Positions 3,827 to 52,317 are shown, numbered from the stretch's first letter. The stretch is DNA of 64,000 bases from Acidobacteriota bacterium (GCA_965217775.1 CBDCJH010000002.1:4480001-4544000); one strand, 5' to 3'. The notes: generated by a model from the letters alone, not told the origin. Translations and numbers: made by a program.

Positions 3827-3978
3827 AAGAGGACGAAAACGGCCGGGCTTGAGGTGAGGGATCAAGAACTTCCCTCTCCCTCGCCGCAACCGCCGTTTCG
3901 CAAGATCAACTCTTTGGGACAATGGCATATACTAGCGGATACGAACATCGCTCGAATTTGCTTCCCAAGGAGATCGTC

Positions 3979-4599
3979 ATGAAATCTCTCCCCGAGGGCT
4001 ACTTCGCCGCACGAGGCCTCCGCGAAACTTCATTTGAATCGCTGAACCAGGCCTTGATGGTCGTTCTCGAACAGATGGAGCCGATGGTCTATGGCGACGC
4101 CACTCGGGAACTGCCGGCCGAGGAGCAAGCCGTCCTTCGTCAAGGCGGTTTGACCCTGGAGCCCCAGCCGGGCCCCGATCCACTGGCTCGGACCGTCGTC
4201 AAATATGCCGCCATCGTCGCACGGAGCCTCTCCAGCAAGGCCGTGAGCCGCAGGCTCGGACTGAGCCCAGGCCGAATTCGCCAGATGATCGCGGATCGAT
4301 CGTTGTACAGTTTCCTGATTGGCCGCCACCGGTACATTCCGGATTTCCAATTCCAGGGTAACCAGTTAGTGCCCAATATCGCTGCAGTCAACAAGGCGCT
4401 ACCCCCAGGTCTGCATCCTGTCGAGGTGTACAACTGGTATCACCTGCCGAACCTCAATCTGTTCCTGGATGAGAACATCGACGACACCGTCAGACCCCTG
4501 GACTGGCTGAAGGGAGGGTACGACGCCGAGCGAGTGGTGTTCCTCGCCAACAGCATGGACGGGCAACATGGCAAAGCTTCCCAGGACACCAGACCGTGA
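3979..4599 (+). CDS. Putative antitoxin (HTH DNA-binding protein) of a RES toxin
   Basis: HTH-like LSSKAVSRRLGLSPGRIRQ, IPDFQF and PLDWL motifs. Overlaps the downstream RES gene. Start could be 3922 or 3979. Confidence 0.7.
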   Translation: MKSLPEGYFAARGLRETSFESLNQALMVVLEQMEPMVYGDATRELPAEEQAVLRQGGLTLEPQPGPDPLARTVVKYAAIVARSLSSKAVSRRLGLSPGRIRQMIADRSLYSFLIGRHRYIPDFQFQGNQLVPNIAAVNKALPPGLHPVEVYNWYHLPNLNLFLDENIDDTVRPLDWLKGGYDAERVVFLANSMDGQHGKASQDTRP

Positions 4600-5206
4600 A
4601 TATCTCCGGCGATTGCCTCCGAGCCTGATCTCCCTGCCCACCAGGACTCTGCTGCACCGCATTTACCGGCGCGGCGGTGACCATCCGACAGAGTGGCCCG
4701 ATTTCAGATATTTTGGACCTACTATCGCTCGCTTCGATCATCAAGAGCGCGACAGCACGGGCCGAGCGCACGTCCAAACGCGGGGAATCCTCTATCTTGC
4801 CCTCGATGTTCCGACCGCGTTGGCGGAAGCGTTTCAGAAACGACGCACCGTCAACCGAACCCATCTGCAGCCCTGGATGGTGTCATTCAAGCTTGTCAAC
4901 GGCCTGTCACTGCTCGACCTGACGGGCACTTTCTGCGTCCGAGCCGGAGGTTCCATGAAACTGGTCAGCGGACCGCCCATCTTCGCACAGAACTGGTCGC
5001 GTGCATTTTACGAATGCTACGAGGACATCCATGGCCTCTACTACCCCTCTTCGCTCACCAACCGGCCTGTGATCGCGCTCTATGAACGCGCCCTCTCCGT
5101 CAATCCGTTCCCGGATACGCCCGTCTTCCACCGCGAGTTGAGCAGTGCCCTGCTGATTGAACCCTTGCGAGACGCATGCCAGGAGATCGGTTACGACTTC
5201 TTCTGA
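4568..5206 (+). CDS. RES-domain toxin (putative NAD+ phosphorylase/ADP-ribosyltransferase)
   Basis: LHRIYRR...FRYFGP..ARFDH, LYLALDVPTALAEAF, LLDLTG, HGLYYPSS carry the R-E-S pattern. Confidence 0.85.
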   Translation: MAKLPRTPDREYLRRLPPSLISLPTRTLLHRIYRRGGDHPTEWPDFRYFGPTIARFDHQERDSTGRAHVQTRGILYLALDVPTALAEAFQKRRTVNRTHLQPWMVSFKLVNGLSLLDLTGTFCVRAGGSMKLVSGPPIFAQNWSRAFYECYEDIHGLYYPSSLTNRPVIALYERALSVNPFPDTPVFHRELSSALLIEPLRDACQEIGYDFF

Positions 5207-35779: not shown

Positions 35780-35828
35780 CCGAACCTCCTCTACCATGAC
35801 GCTCACGATATCCGCTCCTGCTCCGTTA

Positions 35829-35988
35829 ACAGTCCGTGGTGAAAGTCGCGCGAGCACCGAGACCGTTCCTGCGCCCGCCGGACAAGGCGCGATTCGGGTG
35901 CATACCGGGAGTATGTGCCCGAATCGCAACGCCGTCCGCCGGGATGCAGGGACGGTCGAATGCCGTGACGACTTTTGCCACGGGCTGT
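35829..35988 (+). mobile_element. 160-bp MITE, copy 1
   Basis: Imperfect TIRs CAGTCCGTGGTGAAAGTC / GACTTTTGCCACGGGCTG, TA on both flanks, internal hairpin. Near-identical inverted copy at 41056-41215. Confidence 0.85.
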
Positions 35989-36092
35989 TAAGACCTGCCT
36001 TTACTTCAACGCCGCCGGCTCAAAAACTACTAGCGTGAAATCTTCACCTGTGGCCCATCTCCGAGGCGGCGTAGTAGACTGGTTGCCGGGAA

Positions 36093-38585
36093 ATGCGGTC
36101 AGTAGGCGCCCTGAATTCCATCTATCCCCCGGAGCGGGTCCTTTCGGGTCCGGCCCAGTTGGCCCCCTATGAATCGGATGCGCTGACGGCGTTTCGGGAA
36201 CGGCCACTGGCGGTGGTCCTGGCCGAGTCCCAGGAGGAGGTGATCGAGACGGTACGCCTCTGCCACCGGGAGAACCTGCCCTTCGTGGCGCGAGGGAGCG
36301 GCACCAGCCTCTCGGGGGGATCGCTCCCGATCCGGGAGGGCATCATCATCGGGCTCAACCGCCTCAACCGGGTCCTGGAGTTGGATCCGGCCGAGCGGTG
36401 CGCCGTGGTGGAGCCGGGAGTCATCAACCTGGACCTGAGCGCGGTGGGAGCTCCACACGGACTCTATTACGCCCCCGATCCCTCGAGCCAATCCATCTGC
36501 ACCATCGGCGGGAACGTGGCCTTCAACTCCGGCGGAGCCCACTGCCTGCGCCACGGCATGACCAGCAACCATGTCCTGGGCCTGAAGGCGGTGCTGCCTG
36601 ACGGCGCCGTGGTGGAGCTGGGGAGCAAGAGCATGGAAGGGGTGGGACCGGACCTCACCGGGTTCTTCGTGGGTTCGGAGGGGCTCTTCGGCATCGCTCT
36701 GGAGATCACGGTTCGTCTCATCCCGAAGCCCGAGTCGTACAAGACGATCCTGGCCGCCTACAACAGTCTGGAGGCCGCCGGGGACGCCGTGGCTCGGGTG
36801 GTGGCCACGGGACTCCTCCCGGGCGCCATGGAGATCATGGACCATCTGGCCATCGAGGCAGCCGAAGCCGCAGTCCACGCCGGCTATCCCCAGACAGCCA
36901 CGGCTCTTCTCATCGTGGAGTTGGAAGGGGAGACGGCCGAGGTGGAGGCCGAGTTCCAGCTCCTGGAACCGGTGATTCAGGCTTCGGGGGCCTTCGAGAT
37001 CCGTGTCGCCCGAGATGAGGCGGAACGACTCCGGATCTGGAAGGGACGCAAGAGCGCGTTCTCGGCGGTAGGACGGCTCAGCCCCGACTACATCGTCCAG
37101 GACGGGGTGGTTCCCCGGAAGCAACTGGGGTCGACCCTGGCCGAAATCGAGATGCTGGCGCGGAAGCATGGGATCCGGGTGGCCAATGTCTTTCACGCCG
37201 GAGACGGAAATCTCCATCCCCTGATCCTGTTCGACGGCACCGAGGCGGGCGCCCTGGAGAAGGCCGAGGAACTGGCCGGCGAAATCCTGCAGATGTGCAT
37301 CCGCAGGGGGGGCTCCATCACCGGAGAGCACGGCGTGGGCATGGAGAAGCGCGAGTACCTGGCCCACATGTTCGCACCCACCGACATGGAGGTCATGAGG
37401 AGACTGCGGCGATCCATCGACCCGCTGGAGATCGCCAATCGGCGCAAGATGTTCCCCGACGGGCACGGGCGCGTCCCGGCCCCTGAGATCATCCCTTCGG
37501 ACAACGGGGCGCGGACGGCCCTGAGACCCGAATCGTTTCGGCAGGTGCAGCAGGCCGTCGCGGATCACGCGCGTATCCGGCCGCGCGGCGGCGGTACCAA
37601 GCCGGCTCTTTCCCAGCCGCCCGAGGGGATTGTCTCCCTGGACCTGAGAGGTTTGTCCGGCATCGTGGAGTACGAGCCGGAAGAGTACACCTTCACGGCT
37701 CTGGCGGGCACACCGGTAGCCGAAGTCCAGGAGAGATTGGCTCAGGAGGGACAGTATCTGCCCTTCGATCCGGTGTTGGTGCGAGCCGGAGCCACTCTCG
37801 GCGGGACGGTGGCGGCGGGGACCGGCGGCTCGGGACGTTACCGCTACGGCGGCATCCGTGACTTCCTCCTGGGGATCCGGTTCGTCAGCGGCCGCGCCGA
37901 GCTGGTGCGAGGCGGCAGCCGGGTGGTCAAGAACGCCGCCGGGTTCGATCTTCCCAAGCTCATGGTCGGCAGCCTGGGAAGGTTGGGAGTCCTGGTGGAA
38001 ATGACGTTCAAGGTCTTCCCCCTTGCCCAGCGCTGGCTGACCCTGGAAGTGGAACTGCCCGACCTCTCGCAGGCTCTGGAGGCCATACGTCGCCTGCGGG
38101 CTGCTCCCCTGGACTTGGCCGCCGTGGATCTGGAGCCTCCGGGGCGACTGCTGATACGGGTTGGAGGTCGGAGCGAGTCGGTCTCCGTTCGTCTGGACCG
38201 GGTTCGAGAGCTGGTGGGGCAGGGGGTGGAACTACAGGGGCAGGAGGAGCAGGACCATTGGGATGAGGTCCGGGAATTCGACTGGGTCCCGGCCGATTGG
38301 AGCCTGATGAAGGTCCCCATGACCACGAGCCGAATCGCCGATTTGGAAGAGAGTCTGACCTCTGTCCCGTGCCGGTCGCGCTACTGCGCCGACGGTAGCT
38401 TGGCGTGGCTGTCCTGGTCCGGACCGTTGGACCCCTTGGACTCGGCGTTGGCCCATCTGGGTCTCACCGGCCTCGTTCTACGGGGAAACGGAGACATCGC
38501 CCGCCCGGGCCGTAGGCAAGACCGGGTCTTCTCCGAAAGGATCCGGAACGCACTGGATCCGGACGGGCGATTTTCGGAGGAATAG
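36093..38585 (+). CDS. glcD: Fused glycolate oxidase GlcD-GlcE (two FAD-binding PCMH domains)
   Basis: GlcD motifs [35 protein letters not shown], continuing in frame into GlcE motifs [34 protein letters not shown]. Confidence 0.85.
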
Positions 38586-39848
38586 GTGCAACACGGCATC
38601 GACGCAGAACGATACGGGCCTCAGGGCGAAGCCATGGCCCACCAGGTGAAGACGTGTGTGCACTGCGGCTTCTGTCTGCCGGTCTGTCCCACTTACAAGG
38701 ACCTGGGCCAGGAGATGGACTCACCCCGCGGACGCATCCTGCTGATGAAGGAGATGCTGGAGGGGAACCTCGAAATGGAGGAAGGTCTCCCCTACGTGGA
38801 CAAGTGCCTGGGCTGCATGGCGTGTGTCACCGCCTGCCCTTCGGGGGTCGAGTACGGCGAGTTGCTGACGCCGTTTCGAGCGCTGGCCCGGGACCGGGTC
38901 AAGGGGACTCTGCTGGATCGCCTGACCCGCCTCAGCTTTCGACTGCTCCTGCCCTTTCCTCGCCGGTTCCGAGCCGCCGCATATCTGGGCCGTCTGGCTC
39001 GCCCGTTCACCGGGATGCTCCCGGAGCGGATGGCCTCCATGCTGGAGCTGCTGCCCCGGAGGCTGCCGGCTTCTCCTCCGCTTCCGTCTGTCTACCCGGC
39101 CCAAGGGAGGCGCCGGGCTCGCGTCGCCCTATTGTCGGGTTGCGTGCAACAGGTGCTGTCGCCGTCCATCAACTGGGCCACGTTAAGGGTTCTGGCTCGT
39201 AACGGCGTGGAGGTGATCGTCCCCGCCGAACAGGGGTGTTGCGGCGCCCTGGCGCTGCACAACGGCGACGCCGAGCAAGCCCGGCGGTTGGCGGCCCACA
39301 ATTTCGAAGCCTTGCCTGACGACGTGGACGCCATCATCACCAACGCCGCCGGTTGCGGGTCCGGGATCAAGGAGTACCCGCTGCTGTTCCGGAGCCATGG
39401 CCTGGAAGAGGAGGCACGCCGCTTTTCGGCTCGCGTCCGGGACGTGAGCGTATTCTTGGACGAGCTCGGCTTGGAACGGGATCCTCCGCCCCTGCCTGCG
39501 GCAATGAAGGTCGCCTACCACGACGCCTGCCACCTGGCCCACGCCCAAGGCATCCGATCGGCGCCCCGGAAACTCCTGAAAAGGATTCCGAATCTGACCC
39601 TGATGGAGCTTATGGACGGCGAAACCTGCTGCGGCTCCGCGGGGACTTACAATCTGGAACAACCGGAGATCGCAAACCGCTTGGGGGCAAACAAGACAGA
39701 CGTTATCGAGCGATTGCAGCCGGATGCGGTGGCCGCCGGGAACGTCGGTTGCCTGATGCAGATCGAGAGCCACCTCAAGCGGCGGAACAGTCCACTACCT
39801 GTACTCCATACGGTCGAGTTGCTGGATCGAGCTTACGAATCGGCGTGA
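38586..39848 (+). CDS. glcF: Glycolate oxidase iron-sulfur subunit
   Basis: [34 protein letters not shown], two CCG domains. Confidence 0.9.
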
Positions 39849-39914
39849 CTCAACGGCCGCATCGGATCCTTTTGCGGCCAGTGCGGATAGTTTTCGGAGG
39901 CAAAAGAAGAAATG

Positions 39915-40301
39915 TCACGCTACGGTGCCGCGTCCGGTCCCAACGAAGAACTCCCGCAGCACGTCCAGGGTCCCCTCGATCCGGCCCATTCGGTCCCGCA
40001 GGTCGCTGGTCTGCAACTCCATTCGATCGCGCAGGTCGCTGGTCTGTGACTCCATTCGGTCCCGCAGGTCGCTGGTCTGCGACTCCATTCGGTCCCGCAG
40101 GTCGCTGGTCTGCGACTTCATTTGGTCCCGCAGGTCGCTGGTCTGCGACTTCAAGCCGTCGATTCTCCCGGCCAAGCGAGACTCCATCCGATCAATCCGG
40201 GAACCGATCTCCACGCGCTGATTGCGAATCGTTCGGGCCGTGAAAAGGAACCCCAAGATGACTATGGCGGGCGTGATCCACTGGGCTAGTTCAGTCGGCA
40301 T
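39915..40301 (-). CDS. Small TM + coiled-coil protein with 11-aa tandem repeats
   Basis: N-terminal TM (WITPAIVILGFLF), 5x (QTSDLRDRMES), ending MGRIEG. Confidence 0.75.
   Translation of the reverse strand: MPTELAQWITPAIVILGFLFTARTIRNQRVEIGSRIDRMESRLAGRIDGLKSQTSDLRDQMKSQTSDLRDRMESQTSDLRDRMESQTSDLRDRMELQTSDLRDRMGRIEGTLDVLREFFVGTGRGTVA
39988..40152. repeat. 33-bp in-frame tandem repeat (5 units)
   Basis: Unit ATTCGGTCCCGCAGGTCGCTGGTCTGCGACTCC with few substitutions. Confidence 0.9.
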
Positions 40302-40591
40302 CGGTTTCTCGTGAGAAGGGAACAGTCACCGTATTCCGCGCCGGGAACTTGTCCGGCACGCTGCGGCGAAAACTTCCTTACTCTCCGTCCCTCTTTGACT
40401 ATAACGCTTCAACCACGGAATCTGCGATGATGCCGGCCAAAAAAAGGAGCCAACCCGGAGGATGGACCTTTTGGAACGCTAGATCTCGCTTGGATCGCCA
40501 GAACAACGAATAGGGGGCAGTCACTTTCTTCCGCCGTCTCGCTCCAAACGAGTCCGGATTACGGAGGGGACAAGGGAGTTGAGCTAACTGG

Positions 40592-40798
40592 TTACACCCT
40601 CGCTTTGGGTTGGTGCACGAAAGCGAAATCCCGGATGTTGGCACGCTCCACAGCATGTTCAATAGTCATCGCGACCAAGTTTTCATTCTCGTCCAGATCC
40701 AAGTAGATGTTCTCAGACACCTCTCGCGTCTCGACGATCAGCTCCGAAGTAAACTCGATGAGAGCAGTGTCGGTATCTTCAAAGTAATTGATCTTCAT
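40592..40798 (-). CDS. DUF2283-family small protein
   Basis: MKINYFEDTDTALIEF...IYLDLDENENLVAMTIEHA matches the DUF2283 pattern; GAGG RBS. Confidence 0.75.
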   Translation of the reverse strand: MKINYFEDTDTALIEFTSELIVETREVSENIYLDLDENENLVAMTIEHAVERANIRDFAFVHQPKARV

Positions 40799-40932
40799 TT
40801 CCTCGGATTGTACTCCACCGAGATCGCACTCGTTCTCCTTGCCATTCCTGCCCGTTGTCAATGGCCATCGAAAAAAATGTCAGGGTACGGCCGCTGTCAT
40901 CGAATCGAATCGGCCACCGTCACTTTCTTCCG

Positions 40933-41230
40933 CGCGTCCAGGACGTGAGCGTGTTTTTCGGCGAGCTCGATCTGGATCAGGATCCTGAACCCCTCGCGGC
41001 GGTGGACCAGTCCGCTATCTGTACTCCATACAGTCGTGTTGCTGGATCGAGCTTACCAGCCCGTGGCAAAAGTCATCACGGCATTCGACCGTCCCTGCAT
41101 CCCGGCGGACGGCGTTGCGATTCGGGCACATACTCCCGGTATGTACCCGAATCGCGCCTTGTCCGGCGGGCGCAGGAACGGTCTCGGTGCTCGCGGGACT
41201 TTCACCACGGACTGCTACGAATCGGCGTGA
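40933..41230 (+). pseudogene. Decayed, internally deleted duplicate of the glcF 3' end, interrupted by a MITE
   Basis: 40933-41000 aligns with 39432-39500; 41001-41055 with 39781-39835; 41216-41230 with the glcF stop region. Confidence 0.8.
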
Positions 41231-41596
41231 CTCAACGCCCGCATCGGATCCTTTTGCGGCCAGAGTGAGTGGTTTTCGGAGGCAAAAGAAGAAATGTGAC
41301 GTTACGGAGCCGCGTCCAGTCCCGACGAAGAACTCCTGCAGCACGTCGAGGGTCCCCTCGATCCGGCCCATGCGGTCCCGCAGGTCGCTGGTCTGCGACT
41401 CTAAGCCGTGGATTCTCGCGGCCAAGCGAGACTCCACGCCTTCAATTCTCCCGGTCAGGCGAGACTCCATCCGGTCCATCCGGGACCCGAATCGGGATTC
41501 CATCTCCACGCGCTGGTTGCGAATCGTGCGGGCCGTGAAAAGGAACCCCAAGATCACAATTGCGGGCGTGATCCACTGGGCTAGTTCACTCGGCAT
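41015..41596 (-). CDS. Paralogue of 39915..40301 that has lost its stop codon (reads through into the MITE; possibly a pseudogene)
   Basis: MPSELAQWITPAIVILGFLF...MGRIEG; the TGA of copy 1 is TCA here (~41297-41299). Confidence 0.6.
   Translation of the reverse strand: MPSELAQWITPAIVILGFLFTARTIRNQRVEMESRFGSRMDRMESRLTGRIEGVESRLAARIHGLESQTSDLRDRMGRIEGTLDVLQEFFVGTGRGSVTSHFFFCLRKPLTLAAKGSDAGVESRRFVAVRGESPASTETVPAPAGQGAIRVHTGSMCPNRNAVRRDAGTVECRDDFCHGLVSSIQQHDCMEYR
41056..41215 (-). mobile_element. 160-bp MITE, copy 2
   Basis: Reverse complement of 35829-35988. The empty site GAGCTTACGAATC at ~39829-39841 becomes GAGCT-TA-[element]-TA-CGAATC. Confidence 0.9.
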
Positions 41597-41852
41597 CGGT
41601 TCCTCGTGAGAAGGGAACAGTCATTGTATTTCGCGCCGGGAACTTGTCCGGAGTCCAACGTTGAAAATCTCCTTACTCCCTGTCCCTCATTAGACTATAA
41701 CGCTTCAACCACGGAATCTGCGCTGATGCCGGCCAAAACAACGCCGATCCGGAGGTTGGACTTTCTTGAACGTCGAACGAATAGGGGACAGTCCCTTTCT
41801 TCCTCTTGGTATCATCCAATGGCGCTAACCCAACACGCAGAGGAGTACCGTC

Positions 41853-43076
41853 ATGACAAGCTACGTCCTTCTGAAAGATGCCAATGCGGGACGGCGGCGA
41901 AGCTGGTTCGAAGGTTCGCAGAGCGTGGGCGGAGTGCCGTCTTACGGCGGGATGTCGACGATGTCCGGGGACATGCCGCCCGAACCGGAAGTGAGCGTGG
42001 AAAACCTGGAGCCACAAGACCTGCGGGAAGCGACACGTGACCCAGGGATTCTGGATTTGGCGCGGACCATGCCGACACGTTTGATTGCACCGATGGCCTC
42101 GGACACAGCGGCAACGAAAGGGCCGACTTGGGGGATTCAGGCCGTAGGGGCTGACAAGAGCCCCGCCGATGGCCGGGACGTTCTGGTCTGCGTTCTGGAC
42201 ACCGGCATTGACGCCGATCATCAGGCCTTTACGGGGGTGGATCTGGTGCAGCGGGATTTCACTGGAACGGGTAATGGCGATGTGCAGGGGCACGGCACCC
42301 ATTGTGCGGGCACGATGTTCGGACGGGACGTGGACGGCACGCGAATCGGCGTGGCGCCGGGAGTGAGCCGAGCACTGATCGGCAAGGTATTGGGCAATAA
42401 GGGCAATGGCGAATCGGACAGGCTGTTCAACGCAATATTGTGGGCTTCGTCGTTGAATGCAAAGGTTCTCTCGATGTCACTCGGCTTCGATTTCCCCGGT
42501 CTGAGCAAGAAGCTGGCCGATAGGGGATACCCGGTGGATCTGGCGACCTCCATCGCGCTGGAGGGATATAGGGCCAATCTGCGGGTATTTGACAACCTGA
42601 TGGACTTGATTGCCAGTAAGGCAGCATTCAATGGCGGAATGGTCATCGTTGCGGCCTCGGGAAACGAGAGCAAGCGCCAGAAGAATCCGAAGTATGAGGT
42701 CAGCGCTTCGGTACCGGCAGCAGCCAAGGGAATCGTATCGGTGGGAGCACTCGGGGAAGCCGGCGACGGCTTGAACGTGGCGGATTTTTCCAACACCAAC
42801 CCGCTGCTGAGCGCCCCCGGGGTCAATGTGGTGTCGGCGAAAGCCGGAGGCGGACTGGTAGCGTTCCAAGGGACTTCCATGGCCTGTCCCCATGCGGCCG
42901 GTGTCGCGGCTCTGTGGTGGCAGAGAGTGAAGGAGGAAGCCAGCATACCGGCAACCGCGAGCGCGGTGGTGACCCGCATGCGCGCCACCTGCCGGACCGA
43001 TGTATTCCGTGCCGGTGTCGACATGCTGGACCGCGGCGACGGGCTGATCCAGGCGCCTGTTGCATCGGGTGCCTGA
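41853..43076 (+). CDS. S8 subtilisin-family serine peptidase
   Basis: Catalytic LDTG, HGTHCAG, oxyanion AASGNES, GTSMACPHAAG; GAGGAG RBS; no clear signal peptide. Confidence 0.92.
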   Translation: MTSYVLLKDANAGRRRSWFEGSQSVGGVPSYGGMSTMSGDMPPEPEVSVENLEPQDLREATRDPGILDLARTMPTRLIAPMASDTAATKGPTWGIQAVGADKSPADGRDVLVCVLDTGIDADHQAFTGVDLVQRDFTGTGNGDVQGHGTHCAGTMFGRDVDGTRIGVAPGVSRALIGKVLGNKGNGESDRLFNAILWASSLNAKVLSMSLGFDFPGLSKKLADRGYPVDLATSIALEGYRANLRVFDNLMDLIASKAAFNGGMVIVAASGNESKRQKNPKYEVSASVPAAAKGIVSVGALGEAGDGLNVADFSNTNPLLSAPGVNVVSAKAGGGLVAFQGTSMACPHAAGVAALWWQRVKEEASIPATASAVVTRMRATCRTDVFRAGVDMLDRGDGLIQAPVASGA

Positions 43077-43165
43077 GCGTACGCCCGTCTAAACCCTGCT
43101 CCCGAGACGCGTAATAGTTCACGGAACAGAGAAGGGAACAGGCACCCTCTTCCCCGCTCCTCCCA

Positions 43166-43300
43166 TGTTTGAAGCCGTCGAAGAAGTCCGCTAGAACGTC
43201 GACGGTCTTGTCTTTTCCGAAGGCGAAATTCTTGTGCAACGAGAGATCCACAAGGGGAATACCGTCGTAGCGCAGCCGATCGGGGACGCCGTTGACCAAG
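43166..43300 (-). pseudogene. Decayed fragment of the TonB-dependent receptor C-terminus
   Basis: Translates NGVPDRLRYDGIPLVDLSLHKNFAFGKDKTVDVLADFFDGFKH, versus NGAPYPLRYDGVPVVDLSLHKNFAMGEDKTFDVRADFFNAFNH at 44270-44404. Confidence 0.85.
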
Positions 43301-43407
43301 AAACCGAGAAGGGGAGAGTCACCTTTTTCCGCGTCGCGCAGCCTCACAAGACTGGAGAGGACGCCGTTTCCCCGATCTGCGAGCTCCGCGCATGCGGTTG
43401 ATCGAAG

Positions 43408-43671
43408 TCAACAAGGGGGTCCTGGGCTGACTCCAATCCGAATCCCCAGACTCCCCTTGATATGGCCCATATCGATCTCCACGTTACGGAGCCTCTCATC
43501 AATTTTTTGAATTCTGTGGTCAATGCTATTGAGATACCATCCGCCCGCACCCAGCAAAAGAAGAAGTAAAACCCGGAAAATCCAGTTCACATTCAATCCC
43601 CCATTGGTTTCCCGGTGAGAAGAAAAATCCATCTTCTCTAAGTCCGGATCCTTCGGGAGTTTAGCTTTCAT
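43408..43671 (-). CDS. Small TM + coiled-coil protein (87 aa)
   Basis: TM WIFRVLLLLLLGAGGWYL, then IDERLRNVEIDMGHIKG; AT-richer than its surroundings. Confidence 0.6.
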   Translation of the reverse strand: MKAKLPKDPDLEKMDFSSHRETNGGLNVNWIFRVLLLLLLGAGGWYLNSIDHRIQKIDERLRNVEIDMGHIKGSLGIRIGVSPGPPC

Positions 43672-43681
43672 CGTTGTCCCC

Positions 43682-43879
43682 CTACTCTCCGTTCCGCAAT
43701 ATTGGAGGAGCCTTGGTGAATCCCTCGAAGAGCCCCTCCAATCGGGCCATCCGCTCGCGCAGGTCTGCGATGTCCTTACGAATATCCGAAATCTCACGCC
43801 GCATGGACCATTGACCGGGAACGAGGGCGCCAGCGGGCGCGATTGTGGCCACGATGATTCCGATGAGATCCGAACTCAT
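43682..43879 (-). CDS. Small TM + coiled-coil protein (65 aa)
   Basis: Hydrophobic N-terminus, then ISDIRKDIADLRERMARLEG; AAGGA RBS. Confidence 0.65.
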   Translation of the reverse strand: MSSDLIGIIVATIAPAGALVPGQWSMRREISDIRKDIADLRERMARLEGLFEGFTKAPPILRNGE

Positions 43880-44101
43880 GAATCCTTCCGACTACGGTTT
43901 GCCCTCGGCGGGTCAAAGTATCGAAACCCTACCACGACCGTGTCTGCCGGGAATACGGGCTGGTGCCGGTCTCCCGGCAAGCCCCGGCAGGTTCCTTCAG
44001 AGCCATGTGACCCGCTCCGAGTATGGCCACCGTCCCCTCAATTGATTCGGTCCCTCTATGACTGTAACGCTTCAGTCACGGAATCTGCGTGGACACCGGA
44101 C

Positions 44102-44134
44102 AAAAAAAAGGGCCAGCCCGAGGGCTGGCCCTTT
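44102..44134 (-). terminator. Rho-independent terminator of TonB receptor 1
   Basis: AAAAAAAAGGGCCAGCCC-GA-GGGCTGGCCCTTTT. Confidence 0.85.
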
Positions 44135-44160
44135 TGGAACGCTCGATTGCGCTTGGATCG

Positions 44161-47100
44161 CTAGAACGAGAAGCGGAATCCAATCTGAATCTGCCGCGCC
44201 GTCGCCGCCGAGGTTACCCGGCCAACGCCACCACTGGCATGGTTGCCGTTGGGTGCGTTGAAGATGGCGTGGTTGAAGGCGTTGAAGAAGTCCGCCCGGA
44301 CGTCGAAGGTCTTGTCTTCTCCCATGGCGAAATTCTTGTGCAGTGAGAGGTCCACGACGGGAACTCCGTCGTACCGCAGCGGATAGGGGGCTCCGTTACC
44401 CAGGGACCGCCTTGCCGCCTCGTGGCAGAAGTTGGCACCGCCGCAAAGCGACGTGTCCATGATCCGCTGGCCAGGCACACTCGGGTTCTCGATGCCGGGG
44501 GCCGTGAAGGCGCTCGTGTCATACCACCGCTCCACCGTGGCTCCGCCGCCCAAGGCCCCGTCCTTGATCCGGTCGGTGTACCGGCGCGAACGTCCGCCCT
44601 GGTTCCACAGATCGGTGCTGTAGTAGACGCGGAAGGGGGCTCCCGTAGTGAGAGTGGTGATGCTGGTGAGCTCCCAACCGCCCAGCAGGGACTTGGTGAC
44701 CCCGCCGGCGTTCCGGAAGAAAGGCAGCTCCCAGATGGCGGACATGTAGTAGGTGCTGGAGCGGTCGTGCTGCATGGGCGCCCGCAGGGCGTGGCGCTCG
44801 TAGTCACGCGACCCGGACCAGTCTCCCCAGTTGCCGTTGTAGTTCATGGCCATGGCCTTGGACCAGGTGTAACCCATGGAAAGGGCGATACCGTCGCTGA
44901 AGCGGCGCTCCAACTTGGTCTGCAGGGAGTTGTAGTTCATGCTCCCGTGCGGCCGCAGCATGGTGTTGGGAATGACCTGGGGATAAGGCCGCCGGGCCAA
45001 CTGCCCATTCCATTCACGCCCGACCTCGCCACGAGTCTCGGCCGGAATCCACTCGCGAGGCCCGGCCGTGATGGGGTCGCTGGTCAAGGTCGCGGTGCCG
45101 CCACCGATGAGAGGCACCACATACCCTTCCGGCATGGCGACGTTGAAGGGGCTGATCTCGCGGATGTGACGCCCCTGGTTGCCAACATAACCGATTTCCC
45201 ACTTGGTCCCCTGGAACAGCTCGTGCTGAATCATGAGGTTGTAGGAAAAGACTTGGCCTTCCTGCCAATCCAATTCGGAGAAGTAGCAGGTGCGGTAGTT
45301 GCTGTTGACCCGAATGCCATCCGCGTTGATCGCACCCGTATCCCGGGGCAGGTTGAGCCGTATGCCGCTGATGAGGGAGGGGACTGCCTCTCCTCGTACG
45401 GCCGGCAGGTTGATGACGCCGACGTTGGGCCGCATGACCCGGGCGCGGAGAATTCCGAACTCCTGGTCATAGGTCAGGCCCGCACCGGCGCGGAGCACCG
45501 TCCGGTTGGTCCCGAACATGCGCCAGGCCAGACCGAGCCGAGGCGCGAAGTAGCGCCACTTGGCCTTGTAACAACCGCGGTGAGGCAGGTTGGCGAAGGG
45601 AACGGCGATTCCGACGGCTCCCTGCCACTGGGCGATGTCGAAATCCTTCGGCATCATCTCTACCGGATCGATCCGGTTGGTGGCCTGGGTGTAGTCGTAG
45701 CTACAGTAGTAGTAGTCCCTGGTATAGGACCCGTTCGGGTGCCCCTCGTAGAAGGGCGGCCGCGGCTGCTCCCAGCGAAGACCCATGTTCAGGGTCAGGT
45801 TCGGACCCACCTTCCAGTCGTCGTTGATGAACCAGTTGTAATGGCTTTGGTTGAAGTGGCCCGTGTTCTCGCCGATGCCCAGCACGTTGCCGAAGACCGA
45901 GGAGGGCGTTCCCAGCATGAAATCGGCCCAGCCCTCGCCCTCGCTGACGCCCGCGAAGCTTCCGTCCGGGTTGTACTGGAGCTGGCCCGTCGAAAAGCCG
46001 TTGAAGCTGTCGCCACCGGCCGCATAGGGCGGAATCCAGTAGTAGTGGACATCCAGGTTCCGAACGTGCTCGATGCCGAACTTCAGGTAGTGGTCTCCCT
46101 TTCTCCAGGAGGCCGTGTACTTGAAGCCCAGGCCCCAGTCCGCAAGCGGCGATTCGGTGGCGCCGCCCCAACCGGTGTAGCCGGAGGGGCTCAGGCGGGG
46201 CATGTTGGCGCCGCCGCGGTTGCCGTTGGGCAGATAAACTTCCCAGTTCTGGCCGTCGTCGAATCCCAGAACCCGAGGCCAGTTGGTGTCCTCGATGGGC
46301 CGTGAGATGAGCCAGGTGAACTTCCAGATGGACTGGGTGTACTCGGTCACCAGGTTGGATCCGATGGGGTTCACCCAACTGATGCCGATCTGGTAGCCGC
46401 GGGACCGGTCCTGGAACTGGCGGTAGATGCCGTCCTGGTTGGCGCCGGGGACCCCCCACCTCCCGGTATGGGTAAAGGCGGGCGACCGCTGCCAACTGTA
46501 ACGTCCGAAGATGTTGTCGTCGTTGGAGAACTGGTGGTCGACGCGGAACGAGTACTTGTCGATCTTGGTGTTGGTGGCCCGGGGATAGGCGTAGTTGCTG
46601 GTGAGCTCACCCGCCTGATTGGGTGCCGGCGGGGGCATCAACTCCATCACCTTCTTGTAGACCGCACCCTGCATGCTGGCCGGGATCTGGTTGTTGGGGA
46701 AAGCAGCCCGCATTCCCGTTGCGTCCTCTTGGCTTCCGCTGAAGTCGAACGGATTGTAGAGCTGATTGATGGGCCCCTTGGCGCCCGATCCCGAAAAGTC
46801 GCCCTGAGTGATGGCCGTGGAAGGCGCGGTAGCGAAGCCGGCCGTCTGCAGGTTGTCGATGAACTTCTCGTAATGGCCGTGGAAGAAGGTCTTGTCCTTG
46901 AGGACGGGACCACCGATGGAGCCGCCGCCGATGTGGTAGTCCACCGGCAGTTTCTTCAGCCCCGACCGGTTCTGGAAGAAGTTGGCCGCATCCAGAGTCT
47001 CATCCCGGAAGTAGTACCAGGCATGGCCGTGGAACTCGTTGCTCCCGCTCTTGGAGAGCATGGTGATGACTGCCCCGCCCACGCGGCCGTACTCGGCCGA

Positions 47101-47808
47101 GTAGTTGTTGGTGATCACCTTGAACTCCTGCACCGTCTCCGGAGTCGGCTGCACCGTGGGCCGCTGCGTGATGTAGCCCATGTTGTTGGAACCGTCCAAC
47201 TGGATCTGGTTGGAGTGGGAATAGAGGCCGTTGAAGGTGGGGTAGCCGCCGCCGTAGGCGTAGAGGGCCGTGTAGCCGACCTCCTGCCGCTCCTGCGTTC
47301 CGCCCGTGGTCAGGTAGGCCAGCTTCACCATGTCGCGGCCCGCCAGAGGAAGATCCAGGATCTTCTTCTCTTCGATGACCGCCGCCACCTCGGCATTGTC
47401 GGTGTCGATGATGGTGGACTGTCCGGTGACCGTCACCTGCTCGGAGATGTCGCCGGGGGACATGGTGAGATCGATGCGGGATACCGTCTGAACCTCCAGA
47501 CGGACCCCCAGGGAGCGGGCCGTCTTGAAGCCGGGCAACTCCGCCGAAATGTCATAGAAACCGGGGATCAACTTGTCGATGACGTAGTCACCGCGGTCGT
47601 TGGTCACCGCCATGTGCGGCACGTTGGTCGCCGTGGCCGTGGCCGTGACTTCCACCCCGGGCACCACCGCTCCGGTCTGGTCCTTGACGGTACCCAGCAA
47701 CCGGGAAAAGGTGGCAGCTTGCCCGTAGGCCAGCGGCGCCGCCAGCGCATGAACGACGAGCACCAGGGCCGCCGTCGCCAACCATAGAGACTTGTTCTTG
47801 TAGCTCAT
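44161..47808 (-). CDS. TonB-dependent receptor (Oar-like, carboxypeptidase regulatory-like N-terminus), paralogue 1
   Basis: GTVKDQTGAVVPG, VQEFKVITNNYSAEYGR, FAPRLGLAW, C-terminal ARQIQIGFRFSF. Confidence 0.93.
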   Translation of the reverse strand: MSYKNKSLWLATAALVLVVHALAAPLAYGQAATFSRLLGTVKDQTGAVVPGVEVTATATATNVPHMAVTNDRGDYVIDKLIPGFYDISAELPGFKTARSLGVRLEVQTVSRIDLTMSPGDISEQVTVTGQSTIIDTDNAEVAAVIEEKKILDLPLAGRDMVKLAYLTTGGTQERQEVGYTALYAYGGGYPTFNGLYSHSNQIQLDGSNNMGYITQRPTVQPTPETVQEFKVITNNYSAEYGRVGGAVITMLSKSGSNEFHGHAWYYFRDETLDAANFFQNRSGLKKLPVDYHIGGGSIGGPVLKDKTFFHGHYEKFIDNLQTAGFATAPSTAITQGDFSGSGAKGPINQLYNPFDFSGSQEDATGMRAAFPNNQIPASMQGAVYKKVMELMPPPAPNQAGELTSNYAYPRATNTKIDKYSFRVDHQFSNDDNIFGRYSWQRSPAFTHTGRWGVPGANQDGIYRQFQDRSRGYQIGISWVNPIGSNLVTEYTQSIWKFTWLISRPIEDTNWPRVLGFDDGQNWEVYLPNGNRGGANMPRLSPSGYTGWGGATESPLADWGLGFKYTASWRKGDHYLKFGIEHVRNLDVHYYWIPPYAAGGDSFNGFSTGQLQYNPDGSFAGVSEGEGWADFMLGTPSSVFGNVLGIGENTGHFNQSHYNWFINDDWKVGPNLTLNMGLRWEQPRPPFYEGHPNGSYTRDYYYCSYDYTQATNRIDPVEMMPKDFDIAQWQGAVGIAVPFANLPHRGCYKAKWRYFAPRLGLAWRMFGTNRTVLRAGAGLTYDQEFGILRARVMRPNVGVINLPAVRGEAVPSLISGIRLNLPRDTGAINADGIRVNSNYRTCYFSELDWQEGQVFSYNLMIQHELFQGTKWEIGYVGNQGRHIREISPFNVAMPEGYVVPLIGGGTATLTSDPITAGPREWIPAETRGEVGREWNGQLARRPYPQVIPNTMLRPHGSMNYNSLQTKLERRFSDGIALSMGYTWSKAMAMNYNGNWGDWSGSRDYERHALRAPMQHDRSSTYYMSAIWELPFFRNAGGVTKSLLGGWELTSITTLTTGAPFRVYYSTDLWNQGGRSRRYTDRIKDGALGGGATVERWYDTSAFTAPGIENPSVPGQRIMDTSLCGGANFCHEAARRSLGNGAPYPLRYDGVPVVDLSLHKNFAMGEDKTFDVRADFFNAFNHAIFNAPNGNHASGGVGRVTSAATARQIQIGFRFSF

Positions 47809-48333: not shown

Positions 48334-48367
48334 AAAAAGGGGCTAGCCCGCCGGGCTGGCCCCTTTT
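48334..48367 (-). terminator. Rho-independent terminator of TonB receptor 2
   Basis: AAAAAGGGGCTAGCCC-GCC-GGGCTGGCCCCTTTT. Confidence 0.8.
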
Positions 48368-48392
48368 GGAACGCTGACTGCTGCTTGGACCG

Positions 48393-51300
48393 CTAGAACG
48401 AGAAGCGGAATCCGATCTGAATCTGCCGCGCCGTCGCCGCCGAGGTTACCCGGCCCACCGCCGAAGACGAATGGTTTCCGTTGGGTGCGTTGAAGATGGC
48501 GTGGTTGAAAGCGTTGAAGAAGTCCGCCCGGACGTCGAAGACCCTCTCTTCTCCGAGGGCGAAATTCTTGTGCAGCGAGAGATCCACGACGGGAACACCG
48601 TCGTACCGCAGCGGATAGGGGGCACCGTTGCCCAGGGCCCGCCTTGCCGATTCGTGACAGAAGCCGGCTCCGCCGCAAAGCGACGTGTCCATGATCCGCT
48701 GGCCAGACACGTTCGGGTTTTCGACGCCGGGGGCCGTGAAGGCGCTGGTGTCATACCACCGCTCCACCGTGGCTCCGCCGCCGAGATTCCCGTCCCGGAT
48801 GCGGTCCGTGTAACGGCGCGACCGGCGACCCTGGTTCCACAGGTCGGTGCTGTAGTAGACCCGGAAGGGGGCACCGGTGGTGAGGGTGGTGATGCCGGTG
48901 AGCTCCCAACCGCCCAGCAGGGACTTGGACAGTCCGCCTGCGTTCTGGAAGAAGGGCAGCACCCAGATGGCGGACATGTAGTAAGTGCTGGAGCGATCGT
49001 GCTGCATGGGCGCACGCAGGGCGTGGCGCTCATAGTCGCGCGATCCGGACCAGTCGCCCCAGTTGCCGTTGTAGTTCATGGCCATGGCCTTGGACCAGGT
49101 GTAGCCCATGGCAAGGGCCAGACCGTCGCTGAAGCGCCGCTCCAGTTTGGTCTGCAGGGAGTTGTAGTTCATGCTCCCGTGCGGCCGCAGCATGGTGTTG
49201 GGAATGACCTGAGGATAGGGCCGACGGGCCAACTGGTCCGTCCAGGCACGGCTGGTTTCCGTGCGATTCTCGGCCGGAATCCACTCGCGAGGCCCGGCCG
49301 TGATGGTGTCGCCGGTCAGCGTGGCAGTGCCTCCTGCGACGAGAGGAACCACGTACCCTTTCGGCATGGCCACGTTGAAGGGGCTGATCTCGCGGATGTG
49401 GCGTCCCTGGTTGCCGACGTAGCCGATCTCCCACTTGGTCCCCTGGAACAGCTCGTGCTGAATCATGAGGTTGTAGGAGTAGACCTGTCCTTCCTGCCAA
49501 TCCAACTCGGAAAAGTAGCAGACGTAATAGTTGCTGTCGACCAGCACTCCATCCGCATTGACGTTACCCCTCTGACGGGGAAGGTCGATCCGTTTTCCGG
49601 TGATGAGTTCCGGGTACTCGTATCCCCGCGTTGCGGACAAACTGATGACGCCGGCACTCGGCCTCATGGTCCGAGCTCTGAGGATGCCGAACTCCTGATC
49701 GTAGGTCAGGCCGGTGCCGGCGCGGAGCACGGTCCGGTTGGTCCCGAACATGCGCCAAGCCAGACCGAACCGGGGAGCGAAGTAGCGCCACTTGGCCTTG
49801 TAGCAACCGCGGTGAGGAAGGTTCTCAAAGGGAACCGCGATCCCGTCGGGCCCCTGCCACTGGGCGATGTCGAAACCCTTGGGCATCATTTCCACCGGAT
49901 CGATCCGGTTCGTGACCCGGCTGTAATCGTACGCGCAGTAGTAATAGTCGGTGGTATACGACCCGCTGGGATGCCCCTCATAGTAGGGTGGCCGCGGCTG
50001 CTCCCAGCGAAGGCCGATGTTCAGGGTCAGGTCCGGACCCACCTTCCAGTCGTCGTTGATGAACCAATTGTAATGGCTTTGGTTGAAGTGGCCCGTGTTC
50101 TCGCCGATTCCGAGCACGTTGCCGCTAACCGCGGAGGGCGTTCCCAGCAGGAAGTCGGCCCAGCCCTCGCCATAGGTGACGCCGGCGTATTTTCCTTCGG
50201 GGGTGTACTCGAGCTGGCCCGTGGCAAAGCCGTTGAAGGTGTCGGATCCGTTTCCGTACTCCGGAATGTAGTAGTAGTGGACGTCCAGGTTCCGGACGTG
50301 CTCGAAACCGAACTTCAGGTAGTGGTCTCCCTTCCTCCAAGAGGCCGTGTACTTGAAGCCCAGGCCCCAATCCGCCAGCGGCGATTCCCTGCCGCCGCGA
50401 TAACGGGTGTAGCCGTCGGGCTGCAGGCGGGGCATGTTGGCGCCGCCCCGGTTGCCGTTGGGCAGATAGACCTCCCAGTTGTGGCCGTCGTCGAATCCCA
50501 GCACCCGCGGCCAGTTGGTGTCCTCGATGGGCCGTCCGATCAGCCACGTGAACTTCCAGATGGACTGGGTGTACTCGGTCACCAGGTTGGAGCCGATGGG
50601 GTTCACCCAGCTTATTCCGATCTGGTAGCCGCGGGACCGGTCATAGAAATAACGGTAGATGCCGTCCTGATTGGCGCCGGGGATTCCCAGATCCCCGGAA
50701 TGCGCGAACGTGGGCGAGCGTTGCCAACTGTAACGTCCGAAGATGTTGTCGTCGTTGGCGAACTGGTGGTCGACGCGGAACGAGTACTTGTCGATCCGGG
50801 TGTTGGTCGCCCGGGGATAGGCGTAGTTGTTGGCGGTCACGCCCGACTGGTTGGGGGCCGGAGGGGGCATCAACTCCATCACCTTCCTGTAGACCGCGCC
50901 CTGCATGCTGGCCGGGATCTGGTTGTTGGGGAAAGGAGCCCGCTTGCCGGTTCCTTCGGCGCGGCTTCCGGTGAAATCGAACGGATTGTAGAGCTGATTG
51001 ATGGGCCCCTTGGCGCCCGCGCCCGAAAAGTCGCCCTGGGTGATGGCCGTGGAAGGCACCGTGGCGAAGCCGGCTTGGTTCAGGTCGTCGACGAACTTCT
51101 CGTAATGGCCGTGGAAGAAGGTCTTGTCCTTGATGATGGGACCGCCGATGGAGCCGCCGCCGATGTGGTAATCAACCGGCAGCTTCTCCCGCAGGGACCG
51201 GTTCGCGAAGAAGTTGTTCGCATCCAGAGTCTCGTCCCGGAAGTAGTACCAGGCATGGCCGTGGAACTCGTTGCTCCCGCTCTTGGAGAGCATGGTGATG

Positions 51301-52040
51301 ACCGCCCCGCCCACGCGGCCGTACTCGGCCGAGTAGTTGTTGGTGATGACCTTGAACTCCTGCACCGTCTCCGGCGTCGGCTGCACCGTGGGCCGCTGCG
51401 TGATGTAGCCCATGTTGTTGGAGCCGTCCAACTGGATCTGGTTGGAATGCGAATAGAGGCCGTTGAAGGTGGGATAGCCGCCGCCGTAGGCGTAGAGGGC
51501 GGTGTAGCCGATCTCCTGCCGCTCCTGCGTTCCGCCCGTGGTCAGGTAGGCCAACTTCACCATGTCGCGGCCCGCCAGAGGAAGATCCAGGATCTTCTTT
51601 TCTTCGATGACCGCCGCCACCTCGGCATTGTCGGTGTCGATGATGGTGGACTGTCCCGTGACCGTCACCTGCTCGGAGATGTCACCGGGTTCCATGACGA
51701 GATCCACCCGGGATACGGTCTGGACCTCGAGACGAATGCCCAGAGAGGCCGCCTTCTTGAAGCCGGGCAACTCCGCCGAGACATCGTAGAAACCGGGGAT
51801 CAACTTGTCGATGACGTAGTCACCGCGGTCGTTGGTCACCGCCATGTGCGGGATGTTGGTCGCTGTGGCCGTGGCCGTGATCTCTACCCCTGGCACCACC
51901 GCTCCGGTCTGGTCCCTGATGGTTCCCAGCAACCGGGAAAATGTGGCCGCCTGTCCGTAGGCCAGCGGCGCCGCAAGCGCATGCACCACGAGCACCAGAC
52001 ACGCTGCCGCCAACCACAGAGACTTACTCCTGTAGTTCAT
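48393..52040 (-). CDS. TonB-dependent receptor (Oar-like), paralogue 2
   Basis: Same 1215-aa length and largely identical sequence to paralogue 1; start MNYRSKS after AAGGAGG. Confidence 0.93.
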   Translation of the reverse strand: MNYRSKSLWLAAACLVLVVHALAAPLAYGQAATFSRLLGTIRDQTGAVVPGVEITATATATNIPHMAVTNDRGDYVIDKLIPGFYDVSAELPGFKKAASLGIRLEVQTVSRVDLVMEPGDISEQVTVTGQSTIIDTDNAEVAAVIEEKKILDLPLAGRDMVKLAYLTTGGTQERQEIGYTALYAYGGGYPTFNGLYSHSNQIQLDGSNNMGYITQRPTVQPTPETVQEFKVITNNYSAEYGRVGGAVITMLSKSGSNEFHGHAWYYFRDETLDANNFFANRSLREKLPVDYHIGGGSIGGPIIKDKTFFHGHYEKFVDDLNQAGFATVPSTAITQGDFSGAGAKGPINQLYNPFDFTGSRAEGTGKRAPFPNNQIPASMQGAVYRKVMELMPPPAPNQSGVTANNYAYPRATNTRIDKYSFRVDHQFANDDNIFGRYSWQRSPTFAHSGDLGIPGANQDGIYRYFYDRSRGYQIGISWVNPIGSNLVTEYTQSIWKFTWLIGRPIEDTNWPRVLGFDDGHNWEVYLPNGNRGGANMPRLQPDGYTRYRGGRESPLADWGLGFKYTASWRKGDHYLKFGFEHVRNLDVHYYYIPEYGNGSDTFNGFATGQLEYTPEGKYAGVTYGEGWADFLLGTPSAVSGNVLGIGENTGHFNQSHYNWFINDDWKVGPDLTLNIGLRWEQPRPPYYEGHPSGSYTTDYYYCAYDYSRVTNRIDPVEMMPKGFDIAQWQGPDGIAVPFENLPHRGCYKAKWRYFAPRFGLAWRMFGTNRTVLRAGTGLTYDQEFGILRARTMRPSAGVISLSATRGYEYPELITGKRIDLPRQRGNVNADGVLVDSNYYVCYFSELDWQEGQVYSYNLMIQHELFQGTKWEIGYVGNQGRHIREISPFNVAMPKGYVVPLVAGGTATLTGDTITAGPREWIPAENRTETSRAWTDQLARRPYPQVIPNTMLRPHGSMNYNSLQTKLERRFSDGLALAMGYTWSKAMAMNYNGNWGDWSGSRDYERHALRAPMQHDRSSTYYMSAIWVLPFFQNAGGLSKSLLGGWELTGITTLTTGAPFRVYYSTDLWNQGRRSRRYTDRIRDGNLGGGATVERWYDTSAFTAPGVENPNVSGQRIMDTSLCGGAGFCHESARRALGNGAPYPLRYDGVPVVDLSLHKNFALGEERVFDVRADFFNAFNHAIFNAPNGNHSSSAVGRVTSAATARQIQIGFRFSF

Positions 52041-52127
52041 TCCTGTTCCCTCCTTGAAGCTCAAAAGGCTTCGAACTTCCGGCCGTTCATACCGGAAGAA
52101 CGCTCCGTGAGCGCTAATGTTGAGAAG

Positions 52128-52156
52128 TTTGTACAGGATTCGATTTGGGGAGTCAA
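52128..52156 (-). promoter_or_regulatory. Possible sigma70 promoter for receptor 2
   Basis: TTGACT-17 bp-TACAAA, with AATCGAATC in the spacer. Confidence 0.4.
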
Positions 52157-52317
52157 ACAATAAGGAGATAACGATTTAGGACCGAGTCAGACGGGCTCGG
52201 ACGGCCGCGGCAGGATAATTATTCGTTGGCTTCTTCGCCAACCTGACGCCTCCTCTTTTCTCTTTCCTCACCTCTCGTGGGCACCTTCTTTACTCTTTCA
52301 AATGATCCAGTCACCCT

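Follow-up and report, generated by a model that had tools for sequence, protein, structure and literature searches.

The window, the whole stretch of 64,000 nucleotides of Acidobacteriota DNA that we analyzed, contains a 4.3-kb gap between a gene for a glcF-like Fe-S subunit and TBDR-A, a gene for a 1215-aa TonB-dependent-receptor-like protein. A tandem receptor paralogue follows at 48393-52160. The G+C content of the gap is lower than that of its surroundings (0.58 vs 0.63–0.66). Within it lie four small genes for membrane-anchored coiled-coil proteins (TM1–TM4), a DUF2283 gene, and an S8 peptidase gene, together with seven copies of a short motif, here called S, and several pieces copied from the bordering genes and from the receptor's downstream flank. 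The features and their coordinates are given in Table 1.

Table 1. Features of the glcF-receptor gap and its borders, in window coordinates
Feature	Position	Strand	Remarks
glcF-like Fe-S subunit gene	38586..39848	+	Pfam CCG and Fer4 (4Fe-4S) families; left array boundary and source of the internal glcF fragments
TM1	39915-40301	-	Small membrane and coiled-coil gene
S1	40312..40337	+	Diverged TM-start type; on the opposite strand, TM1 starts 10 nt away, with S1 upstream; nhmmer profile match
Spacer preF	40338..40383	+	Between S1 and flank copy A
Flank copy A	40384..40504	+	Degenerate duplicate of 44047-44167, with the conserved block, the remains of the terminator, and the last codon and stop of the receptor
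S2	40507..40532	+	Abuts the end of copy A; 1 mismatch to the 20-nt consensus
DUF2283 gene	40592..40801	-	Module between S2 and S3; PF10049, E = 1.8e-14; in 2/7 relatives (L001, L006)
S3	40906..40931	+	Right side joined to the glcF 3' fragment; profile match
glcF 3' fragment	40918..41056	+	Copies 39417-39501 (73%, 85 nt) and 39779-39836 (90%, 58 nt); intervening stretch absent
MITE-like insertion	41052..41217		166 nt, within the duplicated unit; inverted copy at 35827-35992, 97% complementary
TM2	41296..41596	-	Small membrane and coiled-coil gene, TM1 paralogue (81% aa identity); 86% to the L002 orthologue
S4	41607..41632	+	Duplicate of S1; profile match
Flank copy B	41682..41772	+	Truncated 23 nt short of the stop; terminator eroded
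S5	41778..41803	+	Upstream of the peptidase gene; profile and 20-nt consensus
S8 (subtilase) peptidase gene	41853..43076	+	Module S5-S6; PF00082, E = 2.3e-37; in 7/7 relatives, 86–95% identity by tblastn
S6	43128..43153	+	Profile match
Receptor coding fragment	43166..43298	+	Module S6-S7; copy of 44270-44402; 82% over 133 nt to each receptor paralogue
S7	43305..43330	+	One right-hand context, three left-hand contexts in the window, L002, and L001
TM3	43408-43584	-	Small membrane/coiled-coil gene, start uncertain; adjoins the true flank
TM4	43682-43879	-	Small membrane/coiled-coil gene; adjoins the true flank
True flank	44047..44167	+	Receptor stop 44161-44163; intrinsic terminator 44106-44135 (minus-strand reading); conserved 30-nt block 44058-44090
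TBDR-A	44161..47808	-	CarboxypepD_reg (PF13620) and outer-membrane beta-barrel receptor (PF25183, E = 5e-173); right array boundary

The TM proteins have an N-terminal membrane helix followed by a coil of 11-residue (33-nt) repeats, the number of which differs among paralogues and genomes; those of TM1 lie at 39987-40163. A protein collection held 152 unnamed homologues of 55–175 aa and gave no family match. Searches of the module genes against NCBIfam and PADLOC returned just coiled-coil noise and generic subtilase matches, the only matches in a plasmid collection were two distant S8 peptidases, and a phage collection gave none. No tRNA genes were found. An Rfam search of window positions 35–49 kb at E ≤ 1 gave a single sub-threshold match on the terminator (suhB/mmgR, 22.9 bits vs a gathering score of 41), and five relatives gave zero matches at the gathering score. 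Integrase, resolvase, DDE, Rep/HUH, and reverse-transcriptase families were all absent from the 48 window frames compared with Pfam (longest open reading frame per stretch). Directly upstream of glcF, an 830-aa open reading frame (36093-38585) with FAD_binding_4 in two stretches and FAD-oxidase_C looks like a fused glcD-glcE and is kept in all relatives and outgroups.

The interval between S1 and S2 was initially annotated as a captured piece of the array's right flank, with 40388-40504 as a decayed copy of 44050-44167. Our repeat search confirmed this copy, with an ungapped match of 83% over 121 nt (copy A; E = 8e-31 by blastn on the whole window), and the two 30-mers quoted for it are present. 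As described, the copy reaches the receptor stop: its end, CCAGAAC, aligns with CTAGAAC in the receptor, which holds the last codon and the stop codon (on the minus strand, TAG has become TGG in the copy). Erosion of the terminator was equally evident. The true flank forms a hairpin of 13 pairs (z = −4.5; 0/200 shuffles were equally stable), which is absent from both copies (z = −0.47 in A and +1.70 in B). The further, more eroded copy expected at ~41682-41778 corresponds to copy B, which matches the true flank at 73% over 93 nt and copy A at 94% over 52 nt. The preF spacer that separates copy A from S1 had no significant relation to the left side of the true flank (local alignment score 9, shuffled mean 8.4).

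A search of genome contigs with the receptor protein yielded 25 related loci, which together with the window form a sequence set of 562,012 nt. Throughout this set, matches to the 5' part of the flank are confined to the arrays and to the DNA downstream of receptor orthologues; the segment is therefore locus-specific, as first proposed, and not a dispersed repeat. Only the terminator portion has a further match, in the flank of the tandem paralogue (48334-48402); the 30-nt block upstream has none there. The last 399 nt of the two paralogues, terminator included, are 88% identical (44104-44500 vs 48334-48732).

Copy A is bounded on both sides by S, a discrete 26-nt motif of the form (C)GAR-NN-GGGGACAGTCACTTTCTTCC. 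A profile built from the seven window sites recovers these seven at E ≤ 0.04, which follows by construction since the profile was made from them; the informative result is that the next best match in 64 kb has E = 3, so the placement of the flank copy between two real motif sites stands. A 20-nt consensus drawn from the window sites has 4 matches in the window at ≤3 mismatches, vs 0.02 expected. Across the 562,012 nt, the profile, iterated with sites from relatives, gave 25 matches with E < 1, every one within the glcF-receptor gap of the window or of the seven orthologous loci L001–L007, and S was absent from three more loci (L020, L022, and L023) belonging to two of these genomes. The full set comprises 28 S sites in eight genomes, 22 of them with distinct flank pairs, and all 28 share one orientation relative to the receptor. 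The edges of the motif are sharp: information rises from ~0 to >1 bit within 3–4 nt at position −5 and drops after +19.

Conservation of S differs between site types. Upstream of the peptidase in distant relatives, the motif shows 2–3 changes per 20 nt, vs about one-third of the next 30 nt (counted by eye), and the core is still recognizable in L005–L007 though the adjoining non-coding DNA has drifted. At the S1-type sites before TM genes, conservation is not above that of the flanks. A weak dyad surrounds the central GTCAC (by eye), and none of the seven window sites, folded as DNA with 10 nt of flank on each side, beat its shuffles (z −0.69 to +1.84). A possible eighth S, badly decayed, lies upstream of TM3 at 43613-43645 (GGTGAGAAGAAAAATCC...); its profile score is below significance, and its counterpart in L007 has E = 14.

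Several simpler identities for S were tried and rejected. A promoter or 5' UTR does not fit sites that are found both before and after neighboring genes and in both orientations to them; a consensus promoter scan found 2 sites vs 1.2 expected, one of which overlaps an S (S4, minus strand, 9/12). Nor is S decayed coding sequence of the receptor C terminus, given that S2, S5, and S6 aligned to 44158-44275 with a score of 8 vs shuffled means of 6.9–7.2; the receptor's last codons resemble the first 11 nt of S only. Positions in intact glcF and receptor that correspond to the junctions are not secondary S sites, with a best score of −3 vs 16–42 for real sites, and only 3/8 of these junction partners reach a local P of ~0.1. 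A chromosomal dif or terminus at the locus was rejected on the absence of a GC-skew switch.

We then compared the locus across relatives. L001–L007 are Acidobacteriota MAGs whose receptor is 91–97% identical at the amino acid level, and their orthologous loci were taken with 10 kb on each side; an eighth contig stops just past the receptor. The order of TPR gene, receptor(s), gap, glcF, and glcDE is kept in all seven relatives, and the 10-kb flanks, compared by tblastn with 12 window proteins, carry the same genes. The synteny of glcF extends further, to three outgroup loci. The receptor is intact in all eight genomes. The gap itself is a mosaic whose order in the seven relatives differs from that in the window, with S at the junctions, and its pieces are small membrane genes, the S8 peptidase, DUF2283, and fragments of glcF, the receptor, and tnpB.

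Read from glcF to the receptor, the window holds TM1, S, flank copy, S, DUF2283, S, a glcF fragment with TM2, S, flank copy, S, peptidase, S, receptor fragment, S, TM3, TM4, and flank. The order in L002 is TM, S, flank copy, S, peptidase, S, TM3, TM4, flank, and L003 and L004 have TM, S, flank copy, S, other DNA with the peptidase, TM4, flank. L001 has TM1, a tnpB pseudogene, 9 nt of flank copy, S, DUF2283, S, the peptidase with other DNA, S, TM3, TM4, flank. L005 consists of unit, S, peptidase, S, unit. L006 and L007 show further orders: the DUF2283 gene of L006 lies across the peptidase, on the side opposite to that in the window and L001, and L007 carries a C-terminal fragment of the receptor. 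The tnpB of L001 (17002-17712) is frameshifted and truncated at both its 5' and 3' ends (OrfB_IS605 and Cas12f1-like TNB); it stands in place of the window's copy A, with the TM1 start on one side and the 9 nt of flank copy and S on the other.

These arrays supply pairs of occupied and empty states. A single S in L002 replaces S6, the receptor fragment, and S7 of the window; its entire core is of the S7 type, and the position of the crossover within S is not placeable. The right side of S7 is joined to the receptor fragment in the window, to the peptidase 3' end in L002, and to the start of a TM gene in L001, and in these comparisons divergence begins at the left edge of S. In L001, the DUF2283 module is directly joined to the S before the peptidase, where the window has the glcF fragment, TM2, S4, and copy B. 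Similarity between arrays ended near S in 66/303 cases vs 25 expected (p = 4e-13), a crude count that is inflated because of repeats within the TM genes. The other ends of the borrowed pieces vary. Fragments of glcF start at ~39417 in the window, ~39643 in L005 and L006, and ~39908 in L007, and flank copies end at the stop, 23 nt short of it, or within the terminator.

To date the flank copies relative to the genomes, we aligned 17 flank sequences, eight true flanks and nine internal copies from the eight genomes. Internal flank copies are also present in other arrays with this motif, and copies match the true flank of the same genome at 60–76% (full alignment). True flanks cluster together (77–95%). 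An internal copy groups with copies of its type in other genomes and not with the true flank of the genome that carries it. Copy A matches its counterparts in L003 and L004 at 89% over the full aligned length (88% over 160 nt by blastn), copy B matches the internal copy of L002 at 92%, and the internal copies of L005 and L006 match each other at 93%; copies A and B are 82% identical (full alignment). Clustering by type across genomes implies either that the duplication predates these species or that modules were exchanged between lineages. On this alignment, copy A appears to be an old, inherited piece of the array and not a fresh capture, and the window's two flank copies probably represent two old lineages as opposed to a recent duplication in place. 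The window array resembles a composite in which a left part of the L003 type meets, at S3, a segment of the L002 type that came with a glcF end of its own.

The best-conserved part of all 17 flank sequences, true and internal, is the block GACTRTAACGCTTCA..GGAATCTGCG (44058-44090), just past the terminator. Its conservation in all eight genomes suggests a function, which could be that of a promoter or binding site for the downstream TM gene; a sigma-70 consensus scan left the block uncalled. The initial annotation had also noted a −10-like TATAGT on the minus strand of copy A, about 100 bp upstream of the small TM genes. The hexamer exists (ACTATA on the plus strand, 40398-40403), 97 nt from the TM1 start, but in the same scan it was without a −35 partner and likewise uncalled.

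In L005, the flank copy ends an 827-nt unit (glcF 3' end, TM gene, spacer, and flank). A second unit, with 80% identity to the first, adjoins the receptor, and S-peptidase-S lies exactly between the two. The duplication of this whole unit indicates that the flank was not captured alone, and the arrangement is the shape given by a single-crossover insertion or unequal exchange.

These results bear on the mechanism first proposed for copy A, a recent capture that co-mobilized adjacent DNA, for instance by rolling-circle read-through. In one-ended transposition of the IS91/ISCR type, one end is fixed and read-through would copy the adjacent flank into the array. IS91 has a target preference for GTTC, and GAAC, its complement, is found at the junction of the flank with S2. 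The fixed S end with a variable other end, the uniform orientation of the sites, and junction partners that do not resemble S would also follow from such a process. We nevertheless consider it very improbable: the window frames scanned hold no HUH/Rep gene, S forms no hairpin, the captured pieces carry S on both sides, the copies appear older than the species split, and the L005 copy belongs to a larger two-sided duplication. The sole transposon relic seen in the relatives' arrays is the L001 tnpB pseudogene, which is not a rolling-circle transposase. The earlier interpretation was thus partly right, in recognizing a locus-specific flank copy between sites, and wrong on its timing and likely mechanism. 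Internalization is also wider than had been seen, as it includes the receptor fragment between S6 and S7 and the glcF fragment after S3.

The receptor fragment has 24/133 mismatches to each paralogue, at all codon positions and without adenine bias. Its equal distance to both paralogues and the spread of its mismatches over all codon positions suggest that it is old or imported; the equidistance is also compatible with homogenization of both receptor 3' ends after the fragment split off. The glcF fragment belongs to a larger duplication of 1.1–1.5 kb, in which 39417-40532 and 40918-41803 each comprise a glcF end, TM gene, S, flank copy, and S. A MITE-like element with terminal inverted repeats of ~18 nt (read by eye) splits the duplicated glcF fragment and must therefore have moved after the duplication. 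The same element occurs in L002 (20687-20795) and twice in L007 (935-1082 and 21394-21486).

Duplications of this kind are what would be expected of an ordinary recombination-prone region with no dedicated system, built by tandem or unequal duplication, Campbell-type or homology-facilitated illegitimate insertion of DNA that came from diverged relatives, and short-repeat deletions. S would then do no more than supply homology, as a short element common to the modules that might be a relic of junctions or a regulatory box. Both the 827-nt unit around the L005 peptidase module, which fits a single-crossover insertion, and the window's own duplicated unit speak for this account, and the modules are 8–40% diverged, as for exchange between lineages. 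No recombinase was found among the scanned window frames, and the junction partners are not S-like. The available part of PMC5361080 gives this explanation for similar arrays at T6SS, Rhs, and CDI loci, where gene ends have been displaced. Every rearrangement seen could also have come from homologous exchange between the 26-nt repeats, or slippage at them, with deletions afterwards. What this account leaves unexplained is that ~22 flank pairs all break at the same 26-nt stretch, to within a few bases at either edge, that S has a uniform orientation, and that its core remains recognizable in L005–L007 amid drifted non-coding DNA. Undirected duplication and deletion alone would hardly yield sharp S edges, one orientation, and the observed occupied and empty states. 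We regard a purely ordinary origin as somewhat unlikely, and keep it in play because the enzyme was not found, the crossover is not placeable, the S1-type sites are decaying, and the partners are not S-like.

Another origin for the flank copies would be serial integration at the receptor 3' end. Genomic islands that target gene 3' ends, such as those of tRNA genes, carry a replacement gene end. Here, the last codons of the receptor would be the attachment site, and incoming elements would bring replacement codons, stop, and terminator, so that each insertion would shift the previous end and terminator inward and leave flank copies each followed by S. The array shares with such islands direct repeats of the gene end and downstream DNA around an insert, and an intact target, the receptor being whole in 8/8 genomes. 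At its left end, the S consensus agrees with the last codons of the receptor at 10/11 positions (CGAGAAGGGGA vs CGAGAAGCGGA, counted by hand), exactly where flank-copy homology ends; where a flank copy is full-length, as in the window, L003, and L004, S comes after it at the stop codon; L001 retains no more than the final 9 nt of a copy ahead of S; and the receptor C-terminal fragment of L007 begins at the same point. However, a flank copy stands to the left of only 2/7 window sites (S2 and S5), most S sites being without a left repeat, and the repeats are 17–36% diverged. The S matrix gives the receptor end a score of −3, the profile misses it, local alignment of S to it is not above shuffles, no integrase was found among the scanned window frames, and the paralogue's end, with identical sequence, has no array. 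Serial integration is therefore, in our judgment, quite improbable.

The S1-S2 interval is best described as a non-coding module of the hypervariable array that occupies the glcF-receptor gap in this clade of Acidobacteriota. In the reading that we prefer, to which we assign a probability of roughly 0.5, the array would be rearranged by recombination centered on S, a candidate site for an enzyme encoded elsewhere. Exchange of one S for another would delete, duplicate, and reassort modules, also between diverged alleles of the locus, and events with one end at S and the other at an arbitrary neighboring point would trim and internalize pieces of glcF, the receptor, and the flank. The first duplication would most simply have been a single-crossover (Campbell-type) or unequal exchange of a whole unit, not of the flank alone. 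We rank recombination at S first on the strength of its sharp two-sided edges, single orientation, and the occupied vs empty comparisons. A bolder form of this proposal, that S marks a new chromosomal cassette system in Acidobacteriota, with its recombinase elsewhere, that turns neighboring DNA into S-bounded cassettes, seems unlikely to us. If it were true, the receptor terminator, the receptor and glcF coding pieces, and the tnpB fragment would be cassette genesis caught in the act.

The S-delimited, differently shuffled array in eight related soil-type genomes is a more interesting result than the flank copy itself. For integrons and dif modules, it is not yet clear how ordinary chromosomal DNA first gives rise to site-bounded gene cassettes. 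Here, the same two conserved genes surround different mosaics in eight genomes, with sharp 26-nt joints and fragments of both border genes inside. If S is active, these loci would offer natural before-and-after states for how flanking DNA becomes a module. If it is inactive, they would be a clean case of duplication and diverged-allele exchange that mimics a cassette array, and a useful caution when mobile arrays are called from motifs.

S resembles no site family among those compared, and the locus is filed under none of the known systems considered. Nearest in logic are the dif modules of Acinetobacter plasmids, which likewise have sites of ~26–28 bp around small, shuffled modules and no recombinase of their own. 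In the accessible portions of the reports, these modules are bounded by 28-bp pdif XerC/XerD sites and shuffled among replicons (PMC13141974; PMC6449649), and include genes of toxin-antitoxin size as well as modules without open reading frames, with crossovers that center on the sites (PMC13141974). The pdif sites have XerC and XerD arms with a 6-bp spacer and alternate in orientation, whereas S is direct in 28/28 cases. Unlike pdif, S is also chromosomal and G+C-rich, and has no evident 11-6-11 arms when set against the dif consensus.

Integrons and CALINs resemble the array in their small, mostly single-gene units, a recurring site, the lack of an integrase nearby, and content that varies among close relatives. 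No intI or Phage_integrase match was found in the 48 window frames, though a CALIN would need none. The attC sites of integrons are imperfect inverted repeats of ~57–141 nt that fold as single strands, whereas S has 26 nt and no fold (0/7). Also unlike integrons, the array has genes on both strands, and several of its units are gene fragments or non-coding.

In the displacement arrays of Rhs, CDI, and T6SS loci, as here, copies of a conserved gene's 3' end and downstream region pile up beside the gene. The part of PMC5361080 available proposes that such displaced ends arose through homologous exchange on one side combined with illegitimate joining on the other. In the window and L002–L004, a flank copy precedes S and a small TM gene when read in gene orientation; the coding remnants are 4–5 codons or internal pieces. 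Unlike in those arrays, the receptor is not a polymorphic toxin, the fragments are short (133 nt and ~100 nt) and without alternative tips, fragments of glcF from the other side are internalized too, and there is a discrete junction motif.

IS91/ISCR elements share one fixed end and the capture of adjacent DNA; they differ in that the window frames scanned yielded no Rep/HUH gene and in that the pieces here are motif-bounded on both sides. Three further candidates were rejected. IS200/IS605 or REP/RAYT elements do not fit an S without a hairpin, and the only Y1_Tnp gene lies in the gap of outgroup L012, which has no S. A diversity-generating retroelement does not fit the 24 receptor-fragment mismatches, which are of all types, or the absence of reverse-transcriptase families from the window frames scanned. 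A CRISPR array does not fit an irregular inter-site spacing of ~170–1350 nt that holds genes.

The three outgroup loci (L012, L018, and L019), in which the receptor is 65–69% identical, keep the order of receptor, gap, and glcF, and no S was found in their gaps, which makes the S array a trait of the inner clade. The outgroup gaps hold a DUF427 gene, and that of L012 also holds an IS200-like Y1 transposase gene with palindromic repeats (repeats seen by eye); the gap contents noted in L012 and L019 are at 13753-14834 and 13763-14044, respectively. The space between receptor and glcF is a recurrent landing place for different mobile DNA. Elsewhere in the window, a RES-domain open reading frame (4568-5203), preceded by one without a family match (3922-4596), may form with it a RES-type toxin-antitoxin pair that is unrelated to the array.
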